This document shows positions 8,984-42,365 of a DNA stretch of 64,000 bases, one piece after another; positions within the stretch are counted from its first letter, which is position 1; each line of letters begins with the position of its first letter. This stretch comes from Alphaproteobacteria bacterium (lineage in GTDB: Bacteria; Pseudomonadota; Alphaproteobacteria; MPNO01; UBA830). The position numbers and the translations under genes are program-made. Below the pieces are notes generated by a model that was given only the letters and a program-made list of their open reading frames with translations, searched no databases and was not told the origin of the DNA. The DNA lies in the NCBI GenBank assembly GCA_038131485.1, contig JAYPPO010000010.1:521-64520 (forward strand), read 5' to 3'.

Positions 8984-9090
8984 TCTGGGTACTTACCTCT
9001 CGATATTCCCTCGTGGCGCGTCCGAAATACGCCCGCAGGACAGGCCGGGGTCGCGGCCTTCGCAAGCATTACGCAAAATATGAATGAGCT

Positions 9091-9373: not shown

Positions 9374-9853
9374 TTAGCAAGAGACTGACCGCAGCCTGTG
9401 AACGCAAATGGCCGTGAGCGAGACCGATCCGGCGAAGAACCACAAACCGATGTCCATGCCAGCATCGGCAATGCCGGTGCTCTTGGTAACAACGATGGCG
9501 ATCGCAACGATAAGCACGTCGGCGCATGACCAGCGCCCGAAAAATTCCACGCGGTCGAGCCAGCCGTCGGGCGGCCCGAAGGTCGTTCGGATCCGCCAAT
9601 ACACGACCAGTGCTGCGGCAATCTTGCCAGCCGGAAAGACAACCTAAAACACGATTATTATGAGCCCGAGCAGGATCTCGCCCTCTGACAGCAGCTGCTG
9701 CGCAGCCTCCAATATGGAGAACAGGTTGGAGAAGATCATCATGTTGCTGACCTCCGCCACCGGCAGGAAAACGCCGAGGATGAGCGAGAGTGCCGCAAGT
9801 CAAATAAGATGAAAGGTCAGCCGGTCGACCGGGGAGGCGGGACTGTCTAACAT
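9374..9853 (-). pseudogene. PqiA (paraquat-inducible A)-like membrane protein pseudogene
   Basis: One frame MLDSPASPVDRL...LPVAEV...FSILEAAQQL...VVFPAGK...GRWSCADVLIVA, interrupted by in-frame TGA (9800-9802) and TAG (9644-9646). Confidence 0.7.
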
Positions 9854-9957
9854 GCTCGAAGGATATCGCCTCGAACGCGTCCAAATTCAATGCCGAACTT
9901 TTATACCTCTAGCCCGCCTGTCGAAATTCGACTTTGAAGGGGTCCTAACACGATAGC

Positions 9958-10035
9958 TGGGGTGGCTGATGGGATTCGAACCCACGACCTCCTGGACCAC
10001 AACCAGGCGCTCTAACCAACTGAGCTACAGCCACC
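9958..10035 (-). tRNA. tRNA-His (GTG) with encoded G-1 and CCA
   Basis: Minus strand GGTGGCTGTAGCTCAGTTGGTTAGAGCGCCTGGTTGTGGTCCAGGAGGTCGTGGGTTCGAATCCCATCAGCCACCCCA; acceptor stem GTGGCTG/CAGCCAC, T-loop GTTCGAA. Confidence 0.97.
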
Positions 10036-22883: not shown

Positions 22884-24094
22884 TGAACATCTCTGCACCG
22901 GTTGATGCCCTTCACCATCGCATCGACTTCGCGCGTATTGTAGAGCCCGAACGACGCCCGCACTGGGTGGCCGCCATGTCGAAGCGGTCCATGATCGGCT
23001 GGGCGCAATGGTGCTCCTCGTCCCAATCCGCGATACTGTCAATCGAGGATCGTACTGACATCGTGCGGATGCACGTCGCGGATGTTGAACGACAGGATCG
23101 CGGCTTTCCGCACGCCGTCCCGACAATGTCGACGTTCAGCGCGCCGAGTTGCGCCGTCGCGTATTCGAGCAGGTCGTTTTCGTGCGCCGAGATCGCGTCG
23201 AACCTGATCCCGTCGACGTAGTCCATACCGCGCTGCCGCCGAGCGCGATAATCCCCGCGATGTGCGTGAGTCCCGCCTCGAACTTGAAGGGCAGTTCGGC
23301 GTAGGTCGTCTTCTGGAACGTCACCCGGTCGATCATTTTCCCCGCCGCCCTGGTAGGGCGGCATCGCGTCCAGCAGAGATTCCGCCGTATAGCACGCCGG
23401 ATCCTGCTCGGCCCGGGTAGAGCTTGTGGCCTGAAAAAACGTAGAAATCGACGTCAAGTGCCTGCATGTTCAGCTTCATGTGCGGGTGCCGCCTGGTAAG
23501 CCGTTTGAGCAGCACAACCGCGCCCCTCTTGTGAGCCTCGCGGATAACCCGGTCCACCGGCACAACAGTCCCCAGCGCGTTCGAGACATGCGTCAACGCC
23601 ACCATCTTCGTGCGGTCTGACAGCAAGTTCTTGTAATCGTCGACCAAAAACTCGCCGGCATCGTCCACTGGCACCACCTTGATGACTGCGCCGGTCTGTT
23701 CGGCGATCAGCTGCCAGGGCACGATATTGGAATGGTGCTCGAGCACCGACAACACGATCTCGTCGCCGGACGACAGGTTCTCCTCCCAGCCTGCCGCCAC
23801 GATTGATGCCCCTTGCGGCGCCGCGTACGAAGATCACCTTTCGACGACGCATTGATGAAATCGCGGATCCGCAACCGCGCCGCTTCCATCGCGTCCGCTG
23901 CCCTTGGCTCATATAATGAACGCCGCGGTGGACGTTCGAGTACTCGGTCTCGTACGTCCGCGAAATGCGCTTCATCACCGCCTTCGGCTTATGCGCGCTC
24001 GCTCCGTTGTCGAGATAGACCAGAGGCTTGCCGCACCTGCTCCGACAGGATGGGAAAATCGCTGCGGATGCGATCGATTGATAACGTCGCTCAC
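22880..24094 (-). CDS. sufS: Cysteine desulfurase SufS (frameshifted)
   Basis: LVYLDNGASAHKP, SNVHRGVH, LEHHSNIVPWQ, FYVFSGHKLY, PPYQGGG, HHCAQP, RASFGLYNT. Confidence 0.9.
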
Positions 24095-25365
24095 TTGCCG
24101 CCCTCTCTCGTCGTACCGGCCATCCAGTCCGAAATCGCCGCGAACATGTGATCGCGCACAGCGCCTTCCGGCACAGAATCGGTGACTTCCCCAACGAACG
24201 CCTCGACCAGAAGTGCTCGGGCCTCGGCCGGCGGAACCCCGCGGCTCGTCAGGTAGAACATCGCATTGCGGTCGAGGTCGTTGATTGTCGCGCCGCGATA
24301 TCTCATGTTGTTAAGAATATCTGCAACCTGCCTCGCCAGCCTGCGCCTCGCCATGGCGCTGATTGCGGTTCGATCGATCGAACCTTCTTCCTTGCCATCC
24401 TTCGACGGCTGACCGCCTGAAGACCGAATGTGGCCGTCGCTCGAACGCTTCGAATATCTACGGTTCATGTATATCTGGCGCCCGATGCGCCAAGGTCATG
24501 CCGACGATCGCCAGTAGTGCGGCGCTGGAAATCTCGCAATCCGCGCTCGCCGCTGACGAGACGCACGTCTCGTTGCGCGACAAGACGGCCCTGTCGCACT
24601 GCCGCGGCAGTAGCGCGCGTCACGCGCAAGGGATACGCGCGTCAGAGCTGTATGGAAGGCTCGGATGGACTGCGTCTGGCGCTTGTAGTGCCGGACGGAC
24701 GCGTTCGCGCCGACGTCGATATCGGTCACCGGATTGCTCCAATAGGCCGACTGGGCTGCGCTGACAAAGGTCTCGACGACCACAGCTTCCGCGCCGATGC
24801 CCGCCGCGATAATTGTGCGGGGATGAACCGAAATCTTCGCTTCACCCGAATCGACGACATGGAGCACCTGGACCGGCCGGTCGAGTTTCACGCCGTCCGC
24901 TATCTCGAGAAACAGCCCGTCCCGCATGAACGCGGTGTTAAGCGCGACCAGCGAGACTGATTGCTCATAGTCGGTATCGCCCAGCGATTCATCGTCCAGC
25001 GTACCAAGCGCGTCAGACAACGCCGTCAGTCGCACGCCATCGGGAATATGCGAAAGCTCCGAAAGTGCCTGATTGAAACGGCCGTTAACGATTCCGACGC
25101 AATGCCCACCGTCCATGCGCGGAGGGCCTGCCATTGCGCAAGATCGTGCTACTCCGTCGTGCAGCGGGTCGAAACCGCGCGGTCAGATCCGGTTCAAATT
25201 GGTATTTCCAGCTCGATGCGGCGTTTGAAAGTCGCTCCTGCAAAGGCTTTCATCGCCGCGCCGAGCGCCGGCGAGCCGCGGCCCGGCAGGGTCGCAACGC
25301 CCCGCTCGAAACGGTCGATCAGCAAACTTTGCGACAGTCTGCCTCGCCGATCGTCGCCGTCCGTC
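24091..25365 (-). CDS. sufD: Fe-S assembly protein SufD (heavily frameshifted, boundaries approximate)
   Basis: LNTAFMRDGLFLEI, WSNPVTDI, MFYLTSRGVPPAEARALLVEAF. Confidence 0.8.
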
Positions 25366-25369
25366 GCCC

Positions 25370-26132
25370 AGGTCGCTGCCGGCGCGCCATCGTCAATACC
25401 GAAGCGCACGTAGCCGTCCTCCTAAGCCCGGCGCAAGCTCTTTGCCGCCGCTACACGAACTGGCCCTTCGCCAGCATGCACCTTGTCGGGCAATGATGTG
25501 ATCGAGCAGACGCTGATAGTGCGTGATCACTTAACATAGAGCGTTGCGGCGAGCGCAACTCTTGTCTTCACGCCTTCGGAGACGATCCTGAGCGCATCGA
25601 TATCTAGGCCCGGGAATCCGTCTCATCGAGGATCGCGAGTTTCCGCGCTCCAGCATCGCCATCTGAAATCTCGTTCCGCTTTCTCTCCGCCGCCTGAGAA
25701 ACTGACGTCTACGGGGCGCTTCGGTGAAGCTCATCTTTCATCTCAAGAATCTTGCCTTTCTCTCTAGCATACTTGAGAAAATTCTATTGAATCGAGCTGC
25801 TCGTCACCACGCCCCTTGCGGACTGCGTTTACTGCCGTCTTAAGAAACGTTAGGTTGGAAACGCCCGGAATTTCGACTGGATACTGCAGCGCAAGGAAGA
25901 CACCAGCCGCTGCCCGCTCATGCGGCTCCATGGCAAGCAGGTCGCGGCCCTCGAACAGGATCGAGCCGTCCGTCACCTTATAGCCCTCGCGGCCCGACAG
26001 CACGTAGGACAGTGTGCTCTTGCCCGATCCGTTGGGCCCCATGATCGCGCTGCCGGTATCGATCTCGAGATCGATGCCCTTGAGAATTTCCTTTCCGTCC
26101 ACCGAAACGTGTAGATTTTTTACCGTAAGCAT
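25370..26132 (-). CDS. sufC: Fe-S assembly ATPase SufC (frameshifted)
   Basis: AIMGPNGSGKST, FLALQYPVEIPGV, ITHYQRLLD. Confidence 0.9.
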
Positions 26133-26148
26133 TTTCGTTCCGTCCGTA

Positions 26149-27593
26149 TTAGCCGACGCTGCCTTCGAGCGTGATGCCGAGCAGTTTCTGGGCTTCCACT
26201 GCGAACTCCATTGGGAGTTCCTTAAGGACTTCCTTACAGAAGCCGTTCACGATCAGCGACACCGCCTCTTCTGGATCGAGACCGCGCTGCTGGCAGTAAA
26301 ACATTTGGTCTTCGCTGATCTTCGACGTCGTCGCCTCGTGCTCGACCTGAGCGGTTTGGTTTGAGACCTCGATATAGGGGACTGTATGCGCCTGCACTCG
26401 TCGCCAATCAGCAGCGAATCGCATTGCGTGTAGTTACGCGCATTTTCCGCTCCGCTATCAGGTTTTGACAAGGTCGCGGTAGGTGCTCTGACTCCCTTGC
26501 CATTGAAATGCCCTTAGAAATGATGGTGCTCGACGTATTTTTGCCTATATGGATCATCTTGGTACCAGTGTCGGCCTGTTGGTAGTTGTTGGTAATCGCC
26601 ACGGAATAAAACTCGCCGACTGGAATTGTCGCCTTCAAGAATGCAGCTTGGGTATTTCCAGGTTACCGCCGAGCCTGTCTCCACCTGGGTCCAGGAGATC
26701 TTCTTCGAGTGTGCCCCGCGGCAGACGCCGCTTGGTCACAAATTGTAGATGCTGCCACGGCCTTCCTCGTCACCCGGTACCAGTTTTGCACCGTGGAGTA
26801 CTTGATCCCCGCGCCTTCCATGGCAATGAGCTCGACGACGGCGGCATGAAGCTGGTTCGTCGCGCATCGGCGCGGTGCAACCTCAAGGTAGCTAACATAG
26901 CTGCCTTCATCCGCCACTATCAGGGTGCGTCTGAACTGGCCGGTATTCGCAGCGGGTTGATGCGAAATAGTGCTGAGTCCATAGGCACCGCACGCCCCAG
27001 GAACGTAAACAAAGGTCCGGCCGCTGAACACGGCTCGAATTTATGTCGCATAGAAGTTGTCGGCATAGGGTACTACCGTGCCGAGATACTTCTCGGATGA
27101 GTTTCGATGCTTCGGCACCGCATCCGAGATCGAAAGCAGAAGATGACGCCGGCTTCGCCGCTTTTCCTACGTCGCCTTTACTGATACCGAGTCGAACACG
27201 GCGCGAGCAGCCGCTGCTCATATACCCGCCTGTTTCCGCGATGAATCCCAGCTGTATGTTTCAAGTAACTTGGGGTCAATCTCGTCGAGGCTTTGCGGTT
27301 GGTCTTCGCTGCGCTTGGGCGAGCGTGTAGTAGAGGCGCATCCTAAAATCTATAAGCTGATACTTAAGAAACGCCCAATTGGGCTCATTCATCGTCAGCC
27401 AGTGCTGGTAGGCCGTCAGCCGCCATTCGAGCATCCATTCCGGCTCGTTTTTCTTCGCTGAAATGAACCGGACAATATCCTCGCTCAGTCCCTTCGGGGC
27501 GAACTCAGAATCGATGTCGGTGACGAAGCCATACTTATAGTCGCGCTTAGCGACTTCCTCCATAACGGGTGCTGTGTCCGCAGGCGGTGCCAT
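26149..27593 (-). CDS. sufB: Fe-S assembly protein SufB (heavily frameshifted)
   Basis: [67 protein letters not shown]...EGSVG. Confidence 0.92.
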
Positions 27594-27608
27594 AATCGTG
27601 GTATCTCC

Positions 27609-28065
27609 TCAGGATGTCGTCGCGCGGGCCGATACCGGCTCAAGCTTCTGTTCGGTCACAGTCAATTGCTGTGGCGCGGCCATTTCCGCGAGCGTCACGC
27701 CTTGAAGCGCGCCGACTAGCGCGTCGTTGATGCGGCGCCAGTTCGTCCTTGTCGGCACAGCGCCTCGATTTCGCAGATTGCGCCATCGTCCGTCATGCAT
27801 TCGGTGAGCGCGATGGGCCCGTCGAGCGCAGCGACGATCCGCGCCACGGTGATCTCTTCCGGCTTTTCCGATAGCACCCTCCAATGCACCGCGATGCGAA
27901 GCAAGAAGATCCGCCGCCGCCAATTGCTTGCGATCTTGCTGACCGTCGGAACGGCAATCCAGTCTTTTCTGCAAGCTCCGTCGCCGACACGCGCTGATCT
28001 CTAGAGCGGGCCATCTGTACCATCAAAATGACACCGTAATCTGCGAGCCTGCTCAATTTAATCAT
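27609..28065 (-). CDS. Rrf2-family SUF system regulator (frameshifted)
   Basis: MIKLSRLADYG, ALDGPIALTEC, NWRRIN; first gene of the suf operon. Confidence 0.85.
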
Positions 28066-28388
28066 ATCGATCAAAACTTTTATTCAATCCGCACCAGAAC
28101 GGTACCAATAAAGAAATAGTCTCTGCAAGTATTGGTCAAGGGCGCCCTCGGCATGTCGCTTGGCTTCTTCTCGGGTGCCTTTGTGAACGTTTCCATCTCC
28201 GACGAGCCTCTCGCCCCAACGCTTTTATTAAGGTGCCCGAACTCGACATGAGCGCCCTGTTTGGCATAGGCCTGATCGGTCACGGCATCGCTCGACAGCG
28301 CCGCATCTAATCAACGACCACATCGCAAATACGGAGACGGCCGGGTTTTCCCGGCCGTTTTTAGTTTGTATACAGCTTTGCCTGCCGG

Positions 28389-29400
28389 TCAGCTTGGCAC
28401 GAACTTTTCCGCGTGAACTTTGGTGGCCGGTACGCCGTTCGACGACAGCCACCCTTCCGCCGCTTCAATCATTGGCGGCGGACCACATAGGTAGACACGA
28501 CAAGCGCCGCCCGAGAGCAAATCCGGCCGCAGCAGATCAGTGACGTGGCCGGTCGCCAAGTTACAGCTGCTTTCGCCGTCCACGACGGCGCGCTCGACGG
28601 TCAATGACAGTCCCTTCGCCACATAGCCGTCAAGCTGTCCCTGGGCGAAGAACTCGTCGGGCCTATTTGCGCCATACAGCAAATGCACAGGCTGGCGGGT
28701 GTCTCCCAAGGACCATCCCCGTCGAGCATCGACAGCATCAAGGAGTCTCTGTGCCACTGCCCACCATCAAGATCGGCTCCTCAATCCCGGCCGGAGATAG
28801 AAACGGCCGAACGGACCCGTCATGGTCATCTCATCCTCAGCCTTGCTTCGCTGATATATAATCGCCTCATAGCACCCTTGCCCGAAAGTACCTTAATGAA
28901 GAACTCGTAGCCATCAGTCCGCGATGGCGGGTTCGCGAAAGAATAAGACCGGTGCTTATCGGTGCCCGGCACCGATAGGTGTACATACTGGCCGGGAATG
29001 AACGAAATAGGCTCGGCGTTAATAACGGGCGTTGCCACAACGCGGGCGACGGTCGACGAGACCATGCCGACTTCGCTAACCGTGACGCTTCATGATTCCG
29101 GCTCGGATTCGCAGTGCGGATATTCGGCCCCCGTGAAATCTGATCCCGGTCCGACTTGGCATGCATCTGGCACGTCAGCACCTCGCGACGCGCGAACTCC
29201 GTCAGCGATCCCTTCCGTATACTCGTCGAGGAGTACTACCCTTCGTGCACATACCCTTGCAGGTCGTGCAAGCTCCAGGCAGTCTGTCAGGATGCGATGC
29301 GATTCTTCAACGCCGCGAAATAGATGTTGTCGTCTCGTTCGCATTGAAGCGGATAATCCGTCCGTCTTCGAAGACGAAAGTCACTTCTGTGTGTGCTCAT
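28389..29400 (-). CDS. Ring-hydroxylating dioxygenase reductase (BenC/AntC type; frameshifted)
   Basis: N-terminal 2Fe-2S region with LTCQ, FIPGQY...RSYSFAN, LLYGAN, YLCGPPPM, HAEKF. Confidence 0.82.
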
Positions 29401-29403
29401 TGA

Positions 29404-30427
29404 TTATCCTTCGGGCATGAGCGCGGTTTGACGCTTCGCCGCGCCGATCGTCTGAAACTTCCGCCGCTTCCGACAGCGGCAGGATGGCTCGATCATATAA
29501 ATCGACAGCTCCGCGATAGACGAGTTCCGTCGAACGTTGCCATGTATCCCATATTTGACGGCCGTGAATATTAACCATACTCGGGCACTTAAGTAGCCAG
29601 TAAGTGAAATCGACCGGGATTTCCCTCGGTGGCGCTCCTACGAGACGGAAATCGCCCCCCTTACACAGACTGTCGAAGACCGTCTGAAAGCCCGCCTCCG
29701 AGCCGGAAAATTCTATCCCGACGTCGGCTCCCTCGCCGCCCGTCATGTCGCGGACGGCATCTGCAACATTCGTCTCGTCGGCCTTGAGCGTGCGGTCCGC
29801 GCCCATTGCCTCGGCCGTCTTCAGACGTAAGGGGTTGAGATCAGCCGCAATCACCCGCCCCGCGCCCAGCGCTCGGGCGACTGTTACGGCCATGAGCCCA
29901 ATCGGCCCGCACCTGTTCACCAGAACTGTTCTGGCCGGAGACGCCTGAGCCTTCTTAGACAGTATGACGGCAATGCCGGCGGCCCAGCATCGCCGCTGTC
30001 TCGTGGCAGATCTGCTGGATTTTTCCAGGCGATGATCGCAGGGCACGGTAACGTACTCCGCAAACGCCCCGTCGATATCGATACCGGGATAGCTCGTCGC
30101 ATTGCAAAGATGCGCGCGCCCCAGGCGGCAAGGACGGCAGACACCGCAATAAATATGGCTTTCGAGACTCACATGGTCGCCAACGACAACGTTCGTAACG
30201 CCCTCTCCGATCTGTTCGACGACGCCGCTAACCTCGTGGCCCAGCACGCGCGGGAGCGCCATCCGCCTCGCCATTCTCGGTGCCCAGTTGTAGATCTGCA
30301 TGTCGGTGCCACAGATTCCGGCTGCGCCGACCTTCAGGCGAATTTCCCCGGGGCCCGCGTCGCGCGGATCCCATTCGCGGACGTTGACGCCGCCGACGGT
30401 AGCTTCCGTCTTGCAAAGCGCCAGCAT
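29404..30427 (-). CDS. Zn-dependent medium-chain dehydrogenase, threonine dehydrogenase-like (indels)
   Basis: GICGTDMQIY.W, LGHEVSG, ESHIYCGVCRPC..G..HLC, GPIGLM. Confidence 0.85.
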
Positions 30428-30911
30428 CAGAGGTGATAGACGTCGATCGGCCCTTCAAGGCGATCGTCGATGAAAGTGATCTTCTTCCGGCTGATTCTAA
30501 GCCTACCTTCCTCGCGCCGCAGCTTGAAATCGTACAGGCTGCCCCGCGTCAGACTGCCCTTTTTGCCGTAGGTGTGAATAACGCAATTCGCGGTCGCCTC
30601 GATCTCGTCGCCCTTCTCCGACTGTATGAGGACGTTGCCAACGACGTGCACGGTGCGGTCTAGCGGCACCGACGCGTATGAATTCGCGGATCTGATCCTG
30701 AAAACGCGGTCCTCGAGCCCGCCGCGATTGCGGAGGTAGATCGATTGAGGTTCAGCTCGGGATCTTCGGTCGTCTCTTCCTCGTTGGCCCAGGACGGCAC
30801 CCAGTAGACGGCACCAGCAAGATCAATCCAGTCGTACCACTCCTCGTCGATCGGTTAGTGTGGATCTTGCGGTATATCAGGCTGGTTGGCTTCGGTCTGC
30901 AGGTCACTCAT
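30427..30911 (-). CDS. Ring-hydroxylating dioxygenase beta subunit (BenB/AntB-like; frameshifted)
   Basis: YWVPSW, GGLEDRVFRI, ASVPLDRTVHVVGNV, ISRKKI...PIDVYHL. Confidence 0.85.
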
Positions 30912-32222
30912 CCCATGACGCCTCTCTCCCTTCATCATCTTTATCCATTGTCTGTAGAGTCCGTGGAAAAGGACTTCGTGATCCCAGTTGTCCGAGCTGG
31001 CCACAGGCTCGAAGCCGAGCGCTTTCGCCCCGTCGTCAGCGCCCTTCGTGAATGTCCCGATGCCGCGATTGAACTCGCTCCACCGCGCATCCCGTGCTAG
31101 CGAGCCTTCGTGCGAGTCTTCGAGAGCCGCGATGTCGTCGGATGTCGCCATACCGGCGGTCAGGTAAAAGTCTTCGAACTTGCGCAGCCGGCCCGCTCGA
31201 GCGGAATCGCTCTCGCCCTTCGGCGCGATGGTGACGCGACCTCCATCCACATTGACAGGGGTTTCATCACACGAATTTGCGTCGACGGGTTGTCCATAAG
31301 CAGCACGTTCGGGAAGATGAAGAGATTGCGGCCCTTATTCAGGATCCAATCGACCTGCGCGGGCTTCAGTTCCCTCTCCAACCGCTCCTTCGCTTCCCAT
31401 ACTGGGCGCACCTCGGGCGTCGTGTGCTGTGCCCAGATCGCCATGTGACCGTTGCCGAGATCGTAGCTACCGGTCGGCACTCCACCGGCGATGCGCCCCG
31501 CCTCGGTTTTCTTAATCCCCGTATATTCACCCTTGCCCGCGCGCCGAGATGGTGTGCGCAAAGACCTGGTGGACGGTGAGAAACATGATAGCCATCGACG
31601 CTGCCTCGGCCTGCAGCTTCCAGTTGCCGTCAATCACATAGGTGAGCTGCCAGGGACTGTCTCGAGACCGTCGGGCGACTGCACGATCATTAAATCGATC
31701 CAGGGCTTTGTTGCGCCCAGCCAGTCCTCGAGCGAGGGGACGTCCGGGTTCAAGCTGCCAAACACGAAACCCTTATAGGAGCCCGTTCGCGCGATCTCGC
31801 GCAGGTCGTAATGCGACTTCTCGGTTCCCTCCTCTTCATTCTTCACGCCGATACAGCCGCCGTCGCACTTGTAGCTCCAGCCGTGAAAACGGCAGGTCAG
31901 CGTCTTCGCGTTGCCTCGACGAAACGGCGTCAGGATAGCCGCGCGGTGCGAGCACGCGTTGATGAAGCATTTGAGGGAGCCGTCTTCCTGGCGATGGACG
32001 TAGACAGGCTGGCGGCCGATTTCTGTCCAGAAATAGTCGCCATGCTTCTCTACCTGGCTCTCGTGGCAAAGGAAGACCCAGCATTTTTCGAAGATCTGCT
32101 CGATCTCCTTTTCGAATAACGCCGGATCTGTATACACAGCGCGATCGACGCGAAATACGCCTTCTGCCGACGCGGTCGTCGACCAGTTCGAGCAGTTGGG
32201 GAGTTACGACGCTGCCGTCCAT
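30904..32222 (-). CDS. Rieske dioxygenase alpha subunit 2 (BenA/AntA-like; frameshifted)
   Basis: NACSHR...TCRFHGW Rieske motif, NWKLQAE..DGYH..TVH, GRNLFIFPN, FEDFY..GMATSDD. Confidence 0.9.
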
Positions 32223-32232
32223 GGCTTTTCCT

Positions 32233-33551
32233 TCAGAGATTCAGTACCTGCTTCTCCCACTGTCGGTAGAAGCTGTAATATGAGCGTTTCATGATCCCAG
32301 CTGTTGTTGCTGCTTCCTGGATTGAAGCCACCTTCCTCCGCGACGTCGTCGGGGCTGCTCCATCATGGTTCCCATGCCAGCGATGGAATCCCCCGCCCCA
32401 TTTGGCGCGGCGTCCGGCGGCTGCCATCATATCGCTTCGAGCGCCATCACGTCATCAGACGTTGCCATTCCGCTCGCCATAAAGAAGTCTTCGAATTTCC
32501 GAAGCCTTGCATAGCGCGCCTCGCGGCTCTCATCGGCGGGTGCGAGGCAGTAGATGGTGACCTCAGTCTCGTTGGCAGAGATTGGCCGGAAGATCCGGAT
32601 CTGCGTCGCTGCAAAATCGTTAATCATCAGCGACGGGTAAACGATCAGGTTGCGGCCGCGCCGTAGCATCCAGTTAACCTTGCCCTCTGGATGCGTTGCG
32701 GCAAGCTTGTCTTCCGCCTCCGACAGCGGCGAGGTGGAGACCGGGTCGCGTTCTGCCCAGATCACCATGTGGCCCTTTGCCGAGATCGTAACAGCCGTTT
32801 CGCACCTTCTTGGCAAGCCGGCCGACCTCGGTCTCATCATAACCTCAGCCCTCGCGCTGTTCGCGCTTGCGGACCGTGTTTGCGAAAATCCGGTGAACGG
32901 TGCTGGTGTGATAGCCGTCGACTGCATTCTCGGTCGACATCTTCCAATTACCGCCCACTATGTAGGTCTGAGAGCCTGGCAGAACCGAAGCCCGGCCGCC
33001 GACTGGTCCGCAACGAACGCGAGAAACGCCTTCGACCCGCAGAAAAAATCTTCGAGTGGCTCGACATCAGCCTTTATTGAGCCGAACACGAAGCCCTTGA
33101 AGCTATCCACAGCACCGATCTCGCGGAGGTCATAGACGCTCCGGTCGAACCTTTCGCCATAGCCACTCTCCTCTTCTTTGATACGAATGCAGACGCCATC
33201 GCACTTATAGGTCCAGCCGTGGAAGCGGCAGGTCAGGGTCTTAGCGTTACCCTGCTTGGTCGGCGTCAGAATGGTGGCGGCGCGATGCGAGCACGCGTTG
33301 AGGAACGCCTTGAGGTCGCCCTTCTTGTCGGTGACGAACACCGGCTGGCGGCCGATATGAGTCGTGTAATAATCGCCCGGCTTTCCACCATTCTCGTGGC
33401 ACAGAAACTGCCAGTTCGCCTCGAAGATATTGCGCATCTCCGTTTCGAAGATCTCTTCGTCGAGATAGATGCGGCGATCTATGCGGAAGACGCCGTCCTC
33501 CGGACGGTCATCGATCAGGACGTCCGTGTTGGTCCGTGCAAATCCATCCAT
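32233..33551 (-). CDS. Rieske dioxygenase alpha subunit 1 (BenA/AntA-like; frameshifted)
   Basis: NACSHR...TCRFHGW, GNWKMSTENAVDGYHTSTVH, GRNLIVYPS, FEDFFMASGMATSDD. Confidence 0.9.
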
Positions 33552-33557: not shown

Positions 33558-34300
33558 TTACTCCCTATTCCGCCGCCGTGCCGCGCTGCGGTAGCTGAGG
33601 GCGTGCGAAATGTCCGCCGCCGCCTGCCGAACACAGTCAATACAATGTTTGCGGTTCTCCTCCGTCAGCCGCACTGGGCCCAAACAGGTGACGCCGCCCG
33701 CGACCATCCCGATCCATGCCGAATACAGGCGCCGCGACCGAGACCGCTCCCTTAATTATTTCACCTTCCGATACGCAGACGCCGGTCTGCCGCACCTCGT
33801 CGAGCCTCGGATCGGCGGGCGCATACGGCATGAAGGCAAGCATCGAGCGTCCCGAGGCGCCGACGTTGAGTTTCTCCGTGAAGCCGACACCGCGGTTGAA
33901 GGTCAACGCCTGGCGGCTTGGCAGCTCCTCGATGCAGATCTTTTCGTCATTAGTGCCGGGCACGAACAGCGCCACGGTTTCGTCGGTTTCTTCCCAAAGG
34001 CGGCCGAGAATGGGCCGCGCTGCGCGGACGAAATTGTCCTGGCCGATCCAGTTCCCGGCCAGCCGCGTCGCACCCGACCCTAGCTCGAAACGCTGAGGCT
34101 CGCCGTGTGAGCGGATTAACCCCTTGCCTTCAAGTGTTGCCAGGATGCGATAGAGCGTGGGCCGGTCGAGCTCGAGACGTTTTTGAAGGTCGGTAACGCC
34201 CAATAGCGGCGTTATCGCGGCCGAAACAGGACAGCACGTCGACCGCACGCTCGATGGAGCGGATCGTCTTAGGTTCGTCATCAGCGTGATCGTAGAGCAT
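33558..34300 (-). CDS. IclR-family transcriptional regulator (frameshifted)
   Basis: IRSIERAVDVL, LDRPTLYRILATL HTH, TDETV, GASGRSML, SVAAPVF. Confidence 0.85.
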
Positions 34301-34380: not shown

Positions 34381-35582
34381 TCAAACGGTATGCCGGCCCG
34401 GCCCAAAGTCCTGCATGATCCTGTTGTGCGCGATGCGTGTCTTTCGCGTCGGCGGTGGAGTATTCCGCGACCTACCGACGAAGCGCGGGATGCCATCGGT
34501 AAAGGCCGCCGCGACTGCCGGGTAGTCCCCATGCTTGATGGCATCGAGCGCGGTCTTCTGCGTGCCGCCGAGCGGCGCATCGACGATGATCACGTCAGCC
34601 GCCTTGCCCCGCCTTATGAAGCCAGTATTGATCTTGTAGACCACGGCGTTGTTGCCTGTCGCCGCCGCAACCATCATTTCTGGCGGGTATTTGGACAGGC
34701 ACGACATCTCGACGACTGTCTTGATCATGCCGAGAGGCATGACACCTGTGCCAGTCGGCGTGTCCGTCGCATAAATCAGACGGTCGAATGCATCCTCGCC
34801 TCGACCGCCAGCGTCGAGGCACATCAGGGCAGTTCGAGGCTGGCTCCGGCCTGGCAGATCTGCAGCGCGATTTCGCTCTCGTTGATCACGCGCGTCCTTG
34901 TCTGGCATCGCCACCGGCCCGCCGTTGATGTGAAACGAGACGTCCGGCTTCATATCGAGCAAGTGATCGCCAGTGATCGCCGACGAATCCGGTCGACGCC
35001 GCCGGTGGCGAACGCTGACGATCATCCCCGCTCTCTCTGCGCCATGCAGAACATAGGGCGTGTAGTCGAACGGCGACTTGAACTTGCCAAACCCGGCCTT
35101 AGCGAGCCAGACGCCCTGCTCGAGCGGCGTCGTTGAAATGCTTTTGCTCCAGACTCCGCCCGGCGATCACCGCCCTGGCATGGACGTGGCATGCCTCCCG
35201 GCGAATAATTGTCGAAGCTTTTCTTCGCTGCCACCGCCAGAGCCACGACGTAGCTGTCCGGATCGGACGGGCGGTCGGGCACATGCACCTCACCGCCGAG
35301 ATCGACGTGGTGATGCCGCCGTGAGGTAACTCTCCAGAAACCTTAATGGTGCCGCTGACGCGGAGTGTAGTCCGCGAACGCAAATACGGACTTGCGAGTC
35401 GATCAGGCCGGCATCGCTGTCATACCGCCTGCATCAAGCACAAAGTCGCAAGATTTGACCTCCGTGCCGACAGCGCGACTTTAGCGATCTTACCGTTGTT
35501 CATCAGGATGGAATGCCCTTGCGAATGGCTTGCGCCAGTCACCGGAGACGATGGTCTTAAGGTTTACGATCGCGGTTTTCAT
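34381..35582 (-). CDS. Enamidase-like amidohydrolase (frameshifted)
   Basis: MKTAIVNLKTIVSGDWR, HGGITTSISA, HINGGP, ATDTPTGTGVMPLGM, SRNTPP. Confidence 0.75.
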
Positions 35583-35590
35583 GTCTGGTC

Positions 35591-36165
35591 CTATCTGGAG
35601 CCTGTCTTCGCCAACAACATCTTCCTTGGCCGGGCCGCCGACGCGGTGATTGAGCCGCCCGCGGTTAGCGAAGCAGCATATGATGCATATCCCATCCGCA
35701 GCGGCGCGTCCGGCACAGTAATAGTCATGCCGTCATAGTGCGACCGGACGTATAGCGCGTCCTTGTGGGCAAGCGGAATGTCGAGCATCGCGCCCGGCCC
35801 GCAGCGCTTGGTAAGAGAAGAAATCCACGCCTTGCCCCCGCCGACAGCATCGCGCAGCACGCCGCCACAGACGGTCGTCAGGCAGGCCACGGCATGTTCG
35901 CTCGCCCGCCGTGCCGGATAAGGCCTGCCTTGCCGTATGAATCCACCTTGTTGGGCTTCATCTGCTCTGCGGCCATCGTCGCGATCTTTGCGCCGAGTCC
36001 CTCGCTGGCTTCGGTCAGATCGCTAAGGTCATCGACGTAGCCTTTTCCCGCATGCGGGTTTTTCACCACGGCGACCACTGCGACCTTGCGCAGCGGCTCT
36101 TGGCGCGCCTGGTCCATCTCGTGAAACGTCTCATCGATTATCGTGTAGAGACGGCGGATCTCCAT
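35591..36165 (-). CDS. DUF1185 ('amino acid synthesis' family) protein (frameshifted)
   Basis: AVVAVVKNPHAG..YVDDL, SYGKAG, LRDAVGGGKAWISS, DIPLAHKDALYVRSHYD. Confidence 0.8.
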
Positions 36166-36195
36166 TATTCCTCCCAAACGCGCTTCCAAGCATTC

Positions 36196-37191
36196 TTATC
36201 CGTTTCCGAGAATTGCGAAGCCCATGCCACAGCCGGTGCCTGCGGGCGTCCGGTAGCACGGGATGTAGTTGTGCCACTCTGCCGTCAGGCCGGCGGCGGC
36301 GCCCGCAACAGTGATCCAGTTGCGGATTTCCGAATTGCCGGAATTCAGCTTCGCCCGAGGTATCGCCGCAAGCGCCTCCCCGTCGCCGCTGAGGAACCCG
36401 TCCATCACGATACCGTCGAGATCTTTATTGACCGTAAAATGGCTGAGACCACCAGACGCCACGAAAGCCACCCTTATGTCCTCCGGCCAACCTCCCACTG
36501 CATCGGCCAACGCCATGCCGAACGCGAAGCAACGCTTCGGGCTCGGTTGGTTCGGCGGGTAGTAAGTGTTAAGGACCACGGGCACGACGGGCGCGAGATA
36601 TTTCGTCATCAGCCGGTGGTGCACGAAGCCGTAAGCATGCCCCTCGCCGATAGCGCGCGGCAGCCTCTCGGAATGGCTGATGTCGAAACCCGCCGCAACC
36701 AGAGACGCCGTCAGATACCGTGCGAGCTCTGCCGCGACGGGATATTCCCGCGGCCTATGATCCTCGTGGAACTGCGAGCGAGCGCGCTTCCAGTATTCGG
36801 GAACGGTCTCGGGCAAAGGCGAGATGTTGTTCTTAATCGTATCGCCCGAATAGATCAGCATCGCCGGCAGATTGTCTTCGAGAAATTGCTCTTTCTGGTC
36901 GTCGCCAACTATGATCACTACGTCCGGTTTTGCCTCCTCCAGCGCATCAGCAAGGCGGTTGATACCGGCCTGGCAATCAGCGACCTTTGCGTCAATGATT
37001 TCCGGCTTCAATTCGGCCGCGATCGACGGATCGGCGCATTCGAGAAGCCGCTCATAAACCGTGGGATTACCCTCGAGGTCGAGGTGGGAGATGCTGTTTA
37101 GGTCACGCTCCGCATGCTTCAGGTAGTCCGACGCAGGACTCCCCAGCATGGGGCTGTGAGACGATGCGAGCCCTAGAACAACCTGTCCCAT
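36196..37191 (-). CDS. Class III extradiol ring-cleavage dioxygenase (LigB-like)
   Basis: LASSHSPML, VGDDQKE, GEGHAYGF, ASGGLSHF, SGNSEIRNW, CYRTPAGTG; intact ORF. Confidence 0.88.
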   Translation of the reverse strand: MGQVVLGLASSHSPMLGSPASDYLKHAERDLNSISHLDLEGNPTVYERLLECADPSIAAELKPEIIDAKVADCQAGINRLADALEEAKPDVVIIVGDDQKEQFLEDNLPAMLIYSGDTIKNNISPLPETVPEYWKRARSQFHEDHRPREYPVAAELARYLTASLVAAGFDISHSERLPRAIGEGHAYGFVHHRLMTKYLAPVVPVVLNTYYPPNQPSPKRCFAFGMALADAVGGWPEDIRVAFVASGGLSHFTVNKDLDGIVMDGFLSGDGEALAAIPRAKLNSGNSEIRNWITVAGAAAGLTAEWHNYIPCYRTPAGTGCGMGFAILGNG

Positions 37192-37201
37192 TCTCGATTA
37201 C

Positions 37202-38778
37202 TCAGAACTTGCGGCCGTCGATGTCGTAACCCGATAGCGCATAGTCGACGAGCGCGGTTGCTTTGTCCCAATTGTAGGTCCGGTGCGAATGCGTTTTCAC
37301 GATAAACGGCGCGCCTGCATAGAATTTCTCGTATTGCTCGTGACGGCCGGCAAATTCCGAGCCGATCATGTCCCACGCCAGCTTCAAAAGCTTGATGCGG
37401 TCCTCGCCTTTTACGCCCGGCGACTGGACGTATTTAGTCACCATCTCGCGTATTTCTGGATTTTAAGATCCTCGACAGACGATGGAAGCTGGATGACGCC
37501 GCCCCGACAAGCTCGCGAACGATATCGAGCAGCTTTGGATTGATCTCGGACTGCAGGTTCATGTTGGCATAGAGATGCGACATGCTCGGCAGCACGTACC
37601 CGTTATCGTTAGTCCAACACTCCGCTTCCTGCGCATAGACCAGACCTTCGTACATTGAGGCGTATGTCGCGAGCCTACCGAGCTCGCCCATTACGGGTGG
37701 AAGGTTCCCGATTCCGTTCATGTCCGTGATCTTCTTTGCCAGCCCGACGAGGAAACGGAGCTTGGTCATATAACGAATCTGCGCCTGATTGTTGCCCATG
37801 ATATGGGCCGGCGCCTCAAACCACTGGGCGCGCGCAACGTCGACGTTCTTATAGACGAACACCCGTTCCCACGGCACGAATACGTCATCGTACACGAGCA
37901 GCGAGTCTGTCTCGTCGAAGCGGGTCGCCAGCGGATAGTCAAACACGCTGTTGGCCGCCCAGGCGTATGATCTCCGAGAATAGATCTTCACGCCGGGCGC
38001 ATTGCAAAGGCACCGCGATGGATATCGCGTAGTTCTCGTCGCCCTGGCGCATTGGGTGGATGGTGCTTAGCTGGACGAAATCGGAAAGCGCCGCCCCCGT
38101 CCCCAACATCTGCGCGCCTCGGATTACAACGCCGTCGTCGCGCTCGTCGACGATCCCGGCATAGAGGTCGGGCGGGTTCTGCTGGTGCGCAGGCTTCGAT
38201 CGGTCAATCTGCGGCGGCACGATCGTATAGGCGACGTAGATGTCGTGGTCGCGGCAGAATTCATAGAACTTCAGCATGTTGTCGGCGAATTGCTGCCCAC
38301 CGCGGGCCAGGACCTCGGGCGCCATCGCATAGCCAGCAAAGAACCCGGCAACATGGTCGGGGCTGCGACCCATTAAGCCAAGCGTCATTTCCGACGTCTT
38401 CGTCAACGCCTTGCGGCGCGCTACGAGTTCTTCCTGCGACCGTGGCATCGCCCAGTGCCGATTAACCCGATCGCCGGTCCCCGGCGATAGGTAGGTCATA
38501 AGGTCTTCGTTCTCAGGATCGGCTGCGTTGTCGAATATATTTGAGATTGACTGAATGGCGCCGCTGAAGGCCGGGTGACCTGTCACATCACTTACTACTT
38601 CACCGTTGTGAACAACATACCGGCCATCATCACGAATGCCTGCGACGTATTGCTCACCGGTTCGCACTCCGGTTCCAAAGGCCTCACCCCGGCAGAAGCC
38701 GATACAACCGCATACCGGCTGTTTGCCGCAGTCTACCGAAGTTTCCACACTCTCAGACAATTTGGTCGCCATACTCAT
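37202..38778 (-). CDS. HpaB-family flavin-dependent monooxygenase, oxygenase component (two indels)
   Basis: RTGEQY...DGRYV, MGRSPDH, IVPPQIDRS, GAQMLGTG, FDYPLATRFDETD, LAWDMIGSEFAGRHEQYEKFYAG. Confidence 0.9.
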
Positions 38779-38879
38779 CCCTTTAATTTCTCTCTTCGCA
38801 GATTAGCGGTACATACTTGCTAGGCAAACTGTTGTCGCACTTTTTAGGTAAGGTAGAGTTGGCGAAAAGGAAGGGTTAA

Positions 38880-40010
38880 ATGCAGGAACGCGCAATTACG
38901 GAAAATCCGCTCTACAACGCTAACAAGATGAAGATAGGCATCATTGCCATGAACTGCTCGCACGGGTCCACTATTACCCAAGCCGAGAATTCATGGGAGA
39001 TGAATTGGCCCGAGACGAAGGACGTCGCCGTTATGGCCGACCGCGCCGGATTCGAAGCGCTTCTTCCGGTGGCGAGGTGGAAAGGGTACGGAGGTCCGAC
39101 GAATTTCAACAACCGGACGTTCGAGACTTACAACTGGGCCGCCGCCGTCGCGGCTGTCACCAATTATTCCTGTATCTTTTCTACTTCACACGTCCCCCTG
39201 ACTCATCCGGTCGCCGCAGCAAAGCAATGCGCGACTATCGATCACATCTCCGGTGGGCGGTTCGCGCTCAATGTCGTATGCGGCTGGTTTAAGAACGAGT
39301 TTGAGATGTTCGGCGCCGAGTGGAACGAGCACGCTGTCCGATACGAATACGCGACTGAATGGCTGCAATTTGTCCGCAAGATCTGGTCGCAGGAAGGATC
39401 TTTCGATTTCGATGGCCGCTGGTTCCATTCGAAGGAAGTATGGAGCGAACCCAAACCGATCCAGAAGCCAATGCCCCCGATTATGAACGCAGGTGGATCC
39501 GCCGAGGGCCAAAGGTTCGCGGCCACACAGGCTGACATGAACTTCGTGATCTTAAAGGAACGCGATTTGGAAGGCGGCAAGGCGCAGATCGGCCATCTGA
39601 AGAACATGGCGCGTGAGGCGGGTCGCGACGTCAAAAGCTGGATACATGTTTACGTGGTTTGCCGCGATACGGAAAAAGAAGCGCGCGAATACCTGAAGTA
39701 TTATGTCGAGGAAAAGGGTGACTACGAGGCGGTCAACAATCTTTTGGAAATTTTTGAGATGCAGTCGAAGACCCTTCCAAAAGAAGTCCTCGACGAGTTT
39801 CGCTTCCACTTCATCGCCGGGCACGGCGGCTATCCGCTCGTTGGCACGCCCGAACAGGTCGTCGACGAAATGAACAAGCTGATTGAAATCGGCGTCGACG
39901 GCATGCTCATCTCATGGGTCGATTACAAAACCGAGTGCAGACAGTGGATCGACAGAGTGATGCCGCTGATGGAACAGGCTGGCCAGCGTCGACCGTTCCA
40001 GCCGAACTAG
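38880..40010 (+). CDS. Luciferase-like (LLM) flavin-dependent monooxygenase, RutA-like subgroup
   Basis: LLPVARWKGYGG, ATIDHISGGRFALNVVCGW, PKPIQ, MNAGGS, LVGTPEQV. Confidence 0.88.
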   Translation: MQERAITENPLYNANKMKIGIIAMNCSHGSTITQAENSWEMNWPETKDVAVMADRAGFEALLPVARWKGYGGPTNFNNRTFETYNWAAAVAAVTNYSCIFSTSHVPLTHPVAAAKQCATIDHISGGRFALNVVCGWFKNEFEMFGAEWNEHAVRYEYATEWLQFVRKIWSQEGSFDFDGRWFHSKEVWSEPKPIQKPMPPIMNAGGSAEGQRFAATQADMNFVILKERDLEGGKAQIGHLKNMAREAGRDVKSWIHVYVVCRDTEKEAREYLKYYVEEKGDYEAVNNLLEIFEMQSKTLPKEVLDEFRFHFIAGHGGYPLVGTPEQVVDEMNKLIEIGVDGMLISWVDYKTECRQWIDRVMPLMEQAGQRRPFQPN

Positions 40011-40054
40011 AAGATTTTCCCCCACACTCGCCTTGACCCAAGAAAGATGTTTAG

Positions 40055-41110
40055 ATGAGATTGTTAAAAACAAAATCAGGGAAAAGGCTTGTGTTAAATT
40101 TTCGTAACGGAACGCTTGTTGTAGCGCTGGGAGCGCTTTTGAGCCCGCTAGCCTCGGTCGATGCCTCCGCAAAGATCGATATGAAGATCGGTTATCCGAC
40201 GACGGCAGACCCTCAGCATGATTACGCCGTAAAGTTTGTTGAAGAAGTGCGCAAACGTACAAATGGCGAAATCGACGGCCGCGTGTTTCCGACCAGCCAG
40301 CTGGGCAAAATCCCAAGGCAGGTTGAAGGCATTCAATTAGGCACTCAGGAAGGATTTTTTGCACCGCCCGGATTTCTTCAAGGCGTGAACAAAGCATTTC
40401 AAGTTGCTGATGTTCCAGGTCTTTTTGCAGACCATCAACACGCCCATAGAAGCCTAAATGATCCGAGCTTCAAGCCACTATTTACCGGCTTAGGTGAAAG
40501 TAAAGGCATCACAATTTCCGGTCTCTGGGTCTACGACGGTGCGTCTTACATGGCGACAAAACCAATCGCCAAAATATCGGACTTTAAAGGTTTAAAAATA
40601 CGAGTGCTGGCAACCGAAATTGAGCGGCTTAGCGTTGCCACTATTGGCGCAACTGGTGTCCCCATTCCATTCACGGAGGTGGTACCGGCGATACAGCGAC
40701 GGGTAGTAGATGGCGCGAGGACCAGTCTGGTGGTTGCCGCAAAGGCTAAATTCCCGACCGTCACAAACCATCTTACCATTACCAATGGCTATTATATCCC
40801 GTGCGTTTCCGCGTTCAGTAAGGTTTGGCTGAAGAAACTCTCTGACAAGCAACGAGCAATTGTTATTGATACTGCAGCGGAGCTAGCTGATTGGGCGTCC
40901 GCGCGTGCTCAGAGCTTTGTGGGATTGATGATAAAAGAGTGGAAAAAGTCCGGCGCAACTGTTGGTTATCTGTCCGACGCCGAACAGAAAGAGTACATGT
41001 CTCGGCTCAAACCACTAGGGGACAAGGTATTCCTCAACCATCAGAATGCCGAAATCAAAAAGCTCTATCCTATCCTGAAGGCGGCGGCCGCCAGACAGGA
41101 CATTCGCTGA
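40055..41110 (+). CDS. dctP: TRAP transporter substrate-binding protein DctP
   Basis: Signal-like N-terminus, FPTSQLG, DFKGLKIRV, IPFTEV..AIQ..VVDG. Confidence 0.85.
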   Translation: MRLLKTKSGKRLVLNFRNGTLVVALGALLSPLASVDASAKIDMKIGYPTTADPQHDYAVKFVEEVRKRTNGEIDGRVFPTSQLGKIPRQVEGIQLGTQEGFFAPPGFLQGVNKAFQVADVPGLFADHQHAHRSLNDPSFKPLFTGLGESKGITISGLWVYDGASYMATKPIAKISDFKGLKIRVLATEIERLSVATIGATGVPIPFTEVVPAIQRRVVDGARTSLVVAAKAKFPTVTNHLTITNGYYIPCVSAFSKVWLKKLSDKQRAIVIDTAAELADWASARAQSFVGLMIKEWKKSGATVGYLSDAEQKEYMSRLKPLGDKVFLNHQNAEIKKLYPILKAAAARQDIR

Positions 41111-41134
41111 ACAAATTCGGCAAAGTGAAGAAAT

Positions 41135-41166
41135 CGAGAGGCGTCGGAAACGGCGCCTCTCTTTTT
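41135..41166. terminator. Terminator between convergent dctP and FAD monooxygenase genes
   Basis: GAGAGGCGTCG-GAAA-CGGCGCCTCTC followed by TTTTT. Confidence 0.75.
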
Positions 41167-42365
41167 CAACCGAGCGACTCGGCCTTTCGCAACGCGGCGA
41201 TCATCGACGACTGCAGTAAAAATTCACGCGCCTTGGCAGGGTCAGAGGCCGCCGCCCGCATCTCTTGGTGCTTTGACTGTCGAACGCTTGGATCCGTCTC
41301 CTCCAGCATCGCCTTGTTGCGCAGAGTTGTCTGCTGAACGTAATCGATCGCAATCGGACGTCGCTGGGCATCGTACCGGTCGAGTTCGCTGTCGCGAGCC
41401 TCGCCGTTCCAGACACTTATGATCTTTTCGCACAGATTCACCGCGTCATGGATGCCACCATTCATCCCCATCCCGCCCAGCGGATTGTTAATATGCGCGG
41501 AGTCACCTGCAAGGAACACGCGGCCATTGCGATACGTCTCGGCTACACGCTGGTGCACTGCGTAGGCCGTCCGGTGATAGGTGTCGTAGTCACCTTCCTT
41601 ATCGCACACCTGGTGCATGCGGTCCTGGACGGTCTCGTCGGAGACGAGCGAGTCTGCTGTCTCACCCGGCCGCGAGGGTAACAACAGTCGCCAAAGACCC
41701 GGTACCTTGACGAACACGAACCAGAAATCCGGGTCTGCGATATAGGCAATAGGAGCCAAGTTCTCGAAATGGTTCTCGAATGGGTACTCGGTACTCGCGC
41801 ACAGCCAAAGCTCGGGAAAGGTCAGCCCAGGAAATTCGATGCCAAGCCCGATCCGGATCACGCTGGAAGCGCCGTCGGCGGCAATAAGATACCGGCCTTT
41901 TATTTCCTCGGGTCCGTCTGGGGACTCCGCGAGCAGCGTTACAGTGTCGTCGTCCTGCTTGGAGCCCGTTGCCCGGACGCGGAAGCGGACGTCCACATTG
42001 TCCATCTTACGCAGCTCGTCAATGATAATGCCCGTGAGCTTGTACTGCTCACACTGTACCCTGTAGGGGTGCCGGGTATCGTCTTTCAGGACGCTAAGAT
42101 CCCACTCCGCAATGACGCCTTCGCGCGTATCTCGATACTGCCAAATCGGGCAAATGATGCCCTGTTCGATCAGCTTTTCGACGACGCCGAGGTCGTCAAG
42201 CATGTCGAGCGTTGGCGGATGGAAGGTCGACGCGCGGAGATCAAGCGGCAGTTCGTTGCCGGCCTCAAGTATCGTCACGGGAATACCCCGTTGCGCAAGG
42301 TATAACGCAGCAGTGCATCCCACGGGCCCCGCACCCGATATAATCACGCGATCCGTATCGCTCAT
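41166..42365 (-). CDS. FAD-dependent aromatic monooxygenase (MhpA/UbiH-like)
   Basis: GAGPVG, AADGASS.IR, GRVFLAGDSAHINNPLGGMGMNGGIHDA. Confidence 0.9.
   Translation of the reverse strand: MSDTDRVIISGAGPVGCTAALYLAQRGIPVTILEAGNELPLDLRASTFHPPTLDMLDDLGVVEKLIEQGIICPIWQYRDTREGVIAEWDLSVLKDDTRHPYRVQCEQYKLTGIIIDELRKMDNVDVRFRVRATGSKQDDDTVTLLAESPDGPEEIKGRYLIAADGASSVIRIGLGIEFPGLTFPELWLCASTEYPFENHFENLAPIAYIADPDFWFVFVKVPGLWRLLLPSRPGETADSLVSDETVQDRMHQVCDKEGDYDTYHRTAYAVHQRVAETYRNGRVFLAGDSAHINNPLGGMGMNGGIHDAVNLCEKIISVWNGEARDSELDRYDAQRRPIAIDYVQQTTLRNKAMLEETDPSVRQSKHQEMRAAASDPAKAREFLLQSSMIAALRKAESLG

Follow-up and report, generated by a model that had tools for sequence, protein, structure and literature searches.

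Rieske dioxygenases are usually described as the products of one alpha gene and one beta gene, and a locus in which two different alpha genes precede a single beta gene and a single reductase gene raises the question of whether both alphas are genuine enzymes and how they would share their partners. Such a locus lies in the window analysed here, which is the whole stretch of 64,000 nucleotides (positions 521 to 64,520 of the forward strand of contig JAYPPO010000010.1, assembly GCA_038131485.1) from an Alphaproteobacteria bacterium. The oxygenase-related part spans about 28.4–36.2 kb of the window on the minus strand and contains, along the direction of transcription, genes for a DUF1185/AA_synth protein, an enamidase-like protein, an IclR-family regulator, two BenA-like Rieske large subunits (alpha1 and alpha2), one small subunit (beta), a zinc-dependent medium-chain dehydrogenase/reductase (MDR) and a BenC-type reductase, after which iscR-sufBCDS follows. 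The reading we favour, and consider rather probable, is that this is a real lineage-conserved operon with two oxygenase isoforms, which have differing pockets and work on a common beta and reductase.

Two intact alpha genes in tandem

The first-pass annotation, a reading of the window from its letters and open reading frames, had described two Rieske alphas in tandem 10 nt apart with one beta and one reductase, and this gene order was confirmed together with its coordinates; the frame of alpha1 ends at 32233 and the ATG of alpha2 is at 32222, with the two genes standing head to tail. That the alphas are clearly different in sequence, as it had also stated, holds as well, since their intact orthologues in the related genome G006 (alpha1, 444 aa, L009:14556-15890; alpha2, 439 aa, L009:13235-14554) are 56% identical. 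Its claim that each alpha keeps the catalytic motifs also holds, with one caveat. All motifs are present in the window, namely the Rieske motif at 33293-33219, ENAVDGYH at 32931-32908 followed by TSTVH, and MATSDD at 32468-32451 in alpha1, as well as the Rieske motif at 31954-31883, DGYH at 31596-31585 and MATSDD at 31151-31134 in alpha2, but they are scattered over different frames, and the second His of H-x4-H in alpha2 is shifted out of place by an indel, which we judge to be a consensus error.

In G006, alpha1 and alpha2 score 65.7 and 68.2 bits, respectively, for the Rieske domain (Pfam PF00355, cut-off 20.3) and 64 and 66.4 bits for Ring_hydroxyl_A (PF00848, cut-off 24.9). The Rieske ligands CxH-x17-CxxH (C90, H92, C110 and H113 in alpha1 numbering) are kept in 60/60 aligned alphas, comprising 23 alpha1, 24 alpha2, 10 single alphas and 3 other paralogues, and the motif is found in both window genes. 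Moreover, the bridging Asp and the 2-His-1-Asp site (D214, H217, H222 and D371) are also present in 60/60 and align to D205, H208, H213 and D362 of naphthalene dioxygenase (NDO). Among 13 genome pairs compared for both genes, seven with dS below 1.4 gave dN/dS values of 0.03–0.09 and two gave 0.17–0.24, while three were saturated and one had a dS of 1.7–2.4. Alpha1 and alpha2 are both under strong purifying selection, and both are probably functional.

Occurrence in related genomes

Adjacent alpha1 and alpha2 genes occur in 22/25 other genomes of the same family (f1), with the alpha1 of G001 being cut by a contig end. The exceptions are G012, in which alpha2 lies at a contig start, and G023 (87% complete) and G077 (67% complete), which gave no match to the operon. 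The pair is also present in 2/2 genomes of a second family (f3), and in a scan of one genome per species alpha2 stands directly downstream in 24/24 loci with an alpha1 orthologue. The tandem arrangement is far beyond chance, and, as regards the alpha-alpha-beta-MDR-reductase order whose recurrence elsewhere the first-pass annotation had left to be looked for, intact alpha1-alpha2-beta operons are present in both families (f1, 22/25; f3, 2/2). The records of the two-alpha carriers are titled as uncultured metagenome-assembled genomes (MAGs), mostly ‘Alphaproteobacteria’ or ‘Rhodospirillaceae bacterium’, and the carriers are uncultured marine Alphaproteobacteria from ocean and estuary metagenomes.

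In two sister families (f2 and f4), 7/7 examined loci have one alpha in an AA_synth-enamidase-IclR-alpha-beta-MDR-reductase-iscR-suf context, and this single alpha is 60–70% identical to alpha2 and 52–57% to alpha1. The cultured gammaproteobacterium Alcanivorax quisquiliarum (L081) likewise carries alpha-beta-MDR-reductase with one alpha and no alpha1; a TAXI-TRAP transporter stands before these genes and an extradiol dioxygenase, an aldehyde dehydrogenase and an FAA-type hydrolase stand after them, and the oxygenase module there evidently feeds a meta-cleavage pathway. Relatives with a single alpha had been named in advance as a sign against a genuine pair; genomes of the same family carry both alphas, whereas the sister families carry one, which would represent the ancestral state and not a refutation.

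Differences between alpha1 and alpha2

Comparison of alpha1 with alpha2 and the single alphas gave 21 columns that are conserved within each group and fixed differently between them. None of the 50 eligible columns of the Rieske domain is among these, compared with 21/117 in the catalytic domain (Fisher p=5e-4), and the alpha1–alpha2 identity is 65% in the Rieske domain and 52% in the catalytic domain. Several fixed differences are equivalent to NDO positions, with the following residues in alpha1/alpha2: V209 (T/V), L307 (N/M), C309 (F/N), S310 (A/S) and F352 (F/Y). Of the NDO residues, V209, L307, S310 and F352 are those which we take to line the pocket, and F352 presumably governs regio- and stereoselectivity.

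Between alpha2 and the single alphas, only two fixed differences were found, A65W (family f1 only) and A347G. Residue 65 of alpha2 (column 74) is Trp in 22/22 alpha2 of f1 and Ser in both f3 alpha2, while the column holds Ala in 22 alpha1 and Ser in one, and Ala in 9/9 single alphas; the change falls in the Rieske domain and is confined to two-alpha genomes. In addition, between one-alpha and two-alpha genomes, 0/80 eligible columns of beta and 1/123 of the reductase are fixed differently. The resident alpha2, beta and reductase would, therefore, appear to have been left essentially unchanged by the arrival of alpha1.

Origin of alpha1

In the tree rooted on the most distant BenA-like paralogue, the topology is (par3 group,(alpha1,(Alcanivorax,(single f4,(single f2, alpha2))))), in which par3 is a third BenA-like alpha, with support of 95–99 on the relevant branches. 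The alpha1 sequences form a clade of 23 rows (SH-like approximate likelihood ratio test, SH-aLRT, 96–97) with a stem branch of 0.19, which is not long, and alpha2 groups with the f2 and f4 single alphas (support 99–100). A clade of alpha1 plus alpha2 was rejected by the approximately unbiased (AU) test (log-likelihood difference 85, p=0.00018). A recent tandem duplication was, therefore, rejected by the tree and the AU test, the tested group having been named after the first tree was seen, and alpha1 is not a recent tandem copy of alpha2. These results indicate that alpha1 is probably an older paralogue, which either joined the operon in the common ancestor of f1 and f3 or has since disappeared elsewhere. 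The single-alpha operon would then be the ancestral state and alpha2 the resident subunit. No sign of gene conversion between the alphas was seen, as Rieske-domain identity is 0.650 for same-genome pairs and 0.632 for different-genome pairs; a tree of the Rieske domain by itself was too weak for clades, with 2 changes each, the starred branches forcing only 1.

Partner proteins of the operon

The beta orthologue in G006 reaches 114 bits against a cut-off of 27 for PF00866, and its best NCBIfam models are BenB/AntB at a sub-cut-off score (123 against 226 bits). The reductase combines Fer2, FAD_binding_6 and NAD_binding_1 in one protein of 340 aa and scores 353 bits against the BenC model, below the equivalog cut-off of 430. 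No ferredoxin gene was found between IclR and iscR in the loci examined, and the combination of a single Fer2-FAD-NAD reductase with no separate ferredoxin gene is that of class IB systems.

The MDR scores below the cut-offs for L-threonine 3-dehydrogenase (333.4 against 380 for NF003808; 328.9 against 458 for TIGR00692) and is classed as a Tdh-like zinc MDR and not as Tdh; it matches PDB 2dq4 with E=1.2e-96. Among the 21 two-alpha loci that reach the reductase, four (L057, L058, L059 and L065) cleanly lack MDR between beta and reductase, and in G011 the matches to beta and reductase are only about 130 nt apart, with both alphas kept in the MDR-less loci. This absence suggests that MDR may be dispensable for at least some substrates, as is the case with anthranilate-type substrates, whose diols collapse spontaneously.

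Probable sharing of partners by two isoforms

According to the favoured reading, alpha1 would have been inserted before alpha2, without a beta of its own, in the ancestor of two marine alphaproteobacterial families. The single BenC-type reductase would draw electrons from NAD(P)H and deliver them, by way of its plant-type [2Fe-2S] cluster, to the Rieske centre of alpha1 or alpha2, and each of the two alphas would assemble on the single beta. Because their pockets differ, the two might each dihydroxylate an aromatic or heteroaromatic carboxylate of its own, or both might attack the same compound but at different positions, while MDR would re-aromatise the cis-diol wherever that step is called for. 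Given the conservation of the Rieske domains and the ligand-bearing segments, trimers that mix alpha1 and alpha2 may arise as a side effect, although this account does not require them. What the analysis shows directly is the gene content with its conservation and intactness, the purifying selection, where the differences lie and the phylogeny, whereas beta sharing, differing specificity, the role of MDR and the substrate class are the parts of this reading that we infer. The first-pass annotation had offered two oxygenases sharing beta and reductase for sequential or alternative substrates, and it is alternative substrates that gain support from the complete ligand sets, the selection on both genes, the differences confined to the catalytic domain, the unchanged partners and the presence of only one BenB-like beta in the complete genomes G003, G009 and G013.

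Several points weigh against this reading. The group submitted to the AU test was chosen after the first tree, and acceleration of alpha1 after a duplication could mimic an older origin. The pocket mapping depends on an NDO alignment of about 30% identity, which is less reliable in the C-terminal half. An obligatory pathway role of MDR is uncertain, with the gene gone from 4/21 two-alpha loci. Moreover, all alphas lie far below the BenA and AntA cut-offs, and the substrate class is an extrapolation, while the enamidase-like and DUF1185 genes upstream are a hint of N-heterocycle chemistry, for which an analogy with benzoate offers no explanation.

A mixed oxygenase, obligate or functionally important, in which the alphas co-assemble on beta3 or associate as alpha1 and alpha2 trimers, as reported for NdmA/NdmB, appears unlikely to us. 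It would accord with co-transcription of the alphas, which lie 4–40 nt apart in all loci, and with the better conservation of the Rieske domains, which touch the neighbouring catalytic domain and carry no fixed differences; the alpha3-alpha'3 heterohexamer described for NdmA and NdmB in a review offers a precedent (PMC10380055). However, a three-fold alpha ring, as in the known alpha3beta3 architecture, should not be able to take two paralogues 1:1, and an obligate 1:1 heteromer would fit poorly with such a ring and with a nearly unchanged alpha2. The Rieske and iron sites are complete in both alphas and point to no mutual dependence, no sign of co-adaptation was seen in alpha2, beta or the reductase, which are essentially as in single-alpha genomes, and alpha2-type enzymes stand alone in f2 and f4. 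It is as doubtful that electrons cross between the paralogues or that a product is passed on for a second oxidation. Mixed trimers on beta3, in which electrons go from the Rieske cluster of one paralogue to the iron site of its counterpart and each particle offers two different active sites, seem to us no likelier. If true, two oxygenations of a single substrate could follow one another within such a particle, a coupling that has been proposed for NdmA/NdmB, and the enzyme would be the first Rieske dioxygenase of alpha/alpha'/beta type, having arisen when an operon already in place took in a foreign catalytic subunit.

It is less likely still that alpha1 does without the operon beta, either acting as an alpha3 enzyme that has no beta or pairing with one encoded elsewhere in the genome. 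Since alpha1 stems from an older lineage than alpha2, the operon beta would not be its original partner, the genomes hold 6–12 PF00866 betas each, and a second BenB-like beta (45% identical) is present in most f1 genomes. Nevertheless, this second beta lies beside a different alpha, a 46–48% paralogue, in at least six genomes (G008, G002, G022, G024, G001 and G014), and it was not found in the five genomes of genus g2, although both operon alphas are retained there; it was, therefore, rejected as the partner of alpha1. As well, BenA-type alphas belong to alpha3beta3 enzymes, and three BenA-like alphas, namely alpha1, alpha2 and the orphan par3, stand against a single BenB-like beta (E<=1e-30) in the complete genomes G003, G009 and G013. 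The economical reading is that alpha1 would share the operon beta. The par3 alpha, 52–57% identical to alpha1, has no beta nearby in L044 (G006:C4), L053 (G033:C2), G003, G009 and G013, and in G006 and G033 it adjoins a gene for an HpaB-like flavin monooxygenase; it may also borrow a beta in trans.

Just as improbable in our view is that both alphas carry out one reaction on one substrate, as isoforms that differ in dosage or in kinetics such as oxygen or substrate affinity and not in specificity. The operon, regulator and partners that they have in common would suit this, but 56% identity and an ancient split exceed what dosage would need, and the fixed differences cluster at pocket-equivalent positions, including those of NDO F352 and V209.

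Frameshifts in the window

Each window alpha is split over three frames, as seen for alpha1 by tblastn with the G006 and G002 orthologues, and no gene of the stretch reads as an open frame. Likewise, in a tblastn search of the window, sufB, sufC, sufD, sufS, iscR and all neighbours are equally frameshifted, and 90 small indel events occur over 5.4 kb relative to the 86%-identical orthologous locus of a same-genus genome. Logan contigs from four public runs of one estuary-metagenome study, possibly the source, insert or delete bases at 10 sites (29270-29273, 29295, 29333, 31579, 32165, 32231, 32281, 32416, 32431 and 32988) in the 12 of 104 rows listed, and in all 12 these are the same places as the indels against the same-genus locus. 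Stop-free frames of at least 300 aa hold 44% of the bases in the window, 67% in the whole 2.7-Mb assembly and 82–84% in the loci of relatives. The window frameshifts are consensus errors and not pseudogenes, because the suf genes are broken likewise and both the contigs and the same-genus orthologue correct the same indels. The contig of the window is denser in errors than the remaining assembly, and a gene-level reading of it needs orthologues or polishing.

Two outcomes had been set beforehand as fatal to the tandem, a pseudogene after correction and a lack of sequence spanning both alphas; neither alpha is a pseudogene once the contigs and the orthologue have fixed the indels, and one Logan contig (X1 record 6, 31538-32355) bridges the alpha1/alpha2 junction. 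That one or both alphas are decaying pseudogenes here, or that the tandem is an assembly artefact, is suggested by the several frameshifts that break both genes in the window, but it is extremely improbable and was rejected in view of the same breakage in the housekeeping suf genes, the indel density, the low stop-free share, the correction by independent contigs and the intact tandem in 24 related genomes.

Gene neighbourhood and substrate clues

The coordinates of the operon and its flanks are collected in Table 1.

Table 1. Genes of the two-alpha operon and of its flanks, in order of transcription (positions in the window).
Feature	Coordinates	Strand	Evidence
AA_synth / DUF1185 protein	35595..36168	-	PF06684, E=1.2e-62 (G006 orthologue); tblastn; synteny
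Enamidase-like amidohydrolase	34384..35582	-	G006 orthologue against PDB 2vun; synteny kept upstream in f1, f2 and f3
IclR-family regulator, directly upstream of alpha1	33591..34282	-	HTH_IclR + IclR_C (G006 orthologue); tblastn, three frames
alpha1, BenA-like Rieske large subunit (probable recruited extra paralogue)	32233..33551	-	NCBIfam/Pfam matches on fragments; tblastn
alpha2, BenA-like Rieske large subunit, orthologue of the sister-family single alpha (3' end approximate owing to indels near 30915-30922)	30912..32222	-	NCBIfam/Pfam; tblastn
beta, sole small (NTF2-like) subunit gene of the operon	30427..30911	-	PF00866 in G006 orthologue; tblastn
MDR, Tdh-like zinc alcohol dehydrogenase, presumed cis-diol dehydrogenase	29381..30430	-	ADH_N + ADH_zinc_N
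BenC-type reductase, the only one of the operon	28389..29400	-	Fer2 + FAD_binding_6 + NAD_binding_1; window fragments
iscR-sufBCDS operon, directly downstream, also frameshifted	22886..28065	-	tblastn; adjacency kept in families f1–f4

The oxygenase operon lies directly upstream of iscR-sufBCDS on the same strand in all four families (window 22886-29400; L046-L052), and an Fe-S-rich oxygenase has long been conserved beside an Fe-S assembly operon. On the other side, at 34384-38052, the window has the enamidase homologue, the DUF1185 protein and an HpaB-like oxygenase, and the enamidase-like orthologue of G006 matches PDB 2vun, an enamidase, over its full length (E=1.8e-104). The upstream regions of relatives (L009, L011 and L012) add an FAD monooxygenase, an Amdase/maleate-isomerase-like protein, a CMD-family protein, a TRAP binding protein, a class-III aminotransferase and hydantoinase A/B, and this region is possibly a catabolic island for N-heterocyclic acids. 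Elsewhere in the window, G+C dips to 0.52 at 8001-10000 and to 0.53–0.56 at 38001-42000, compared with about 0.60–0.65 in the rest.

The components of this system are ordinary, while their combination is unusual. The picture is that of an anciently diverged second catalytic subunit, which was probably slotted into an existing operon and has long been kept, in seven genera of one family and in a second family. The addition of alpha1, with no beta or reductase of its own and with the resident partners unchanged, might represent a simple way for evolution to widen the range of substrates, and it raises the question of how promiscuous the beta scaffold and inter-subunit electron transfer are. Since the carriers are found in ocean and estuary metagenomes, the enzymes may matter for the turnover of aromatic or N-heteroaromatic acids in seawater.

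Comparison with known systems

BenABC/AntABC are the closest known relatives by model score, as the NCBIfam models that score best with the alphas, beta and reductase are theirs. They share with the present system the same domains (Rieske plus Ring_hydroxyl_A, Ring_hydroxyl_B and Fer2-FAD-NAD), the lack of an operon ferredoxin and all ligands. In contrast, the present operon has two alpha genes per beta and a Tdh-like zinc MDR between beta and reductase in place of BenD, which is a short-chain dehydrogenase. The scores stay below the equivalog cut-offs of BenA (TIGR03229, 780.95 bits; alpha1 448.8, alpha2 459.4, single alphas 465–471) and AntA (TIGR03228, 671.9 bits; alpha1 367, alpha2 339), and the public annotation ‘benzoate/toluate 1,2-dioxygenase’ that was encountered is unsupported by these scores. 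The single-alpha operons of the sister families (records titled, e.g., Defluviicoccus sp. MAGs) and of Alcanivorax quisquiliarum have the same alpha-beta-MDR-reductase order, and in the alphaproteobacterial families the flanks match too, with enamidase-like, DUF1185 and IclR genes upstream and iscR-suf downstream; they differ in having one alpha only, of the alpha2 type, and no alpha1.

Several terminal oxygenases also depend on common electron carriers in the sphingomonad bph/xyl/ahd clusters and in the nag operon of Ralstonia U2, where each alpha has its own beta, and Pseudomonas resinovorans CA10 has tandem copies of carAa, which are identical and beta-less. In a full-text literature search of papers outside subscription journals, the matches listed held no relevant description of a two-alpha/one-beta Rieske oxygenase and nothing relevant on an MDR-type cis-diol dehydrogenase, and no paper joining ‘enamidase’ and ‘Rieske’ was found. 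PMC8547461, considered as a possible two-alpha/one-beta report, was set aside as irrelevant on the part that was retrieved, and the retrieved part of the DUF1185 structure paper (PMC2954203) gave no useful context for the operon.

NdmA/NdmB, the caffeine N-demethylases of Pseudomonas putida CBB5, are functionally the closest precedent for a pair of Rieske catalytic paralogues that are served by a single reductase. The two have different positional specificity and are reported to form an alpha3-alpha'3 heterohexamer (PMC10380055). They differ from the present system in being beta-less monooxygenases of a distant Rieske group with no alpha-alpha-beta operon.

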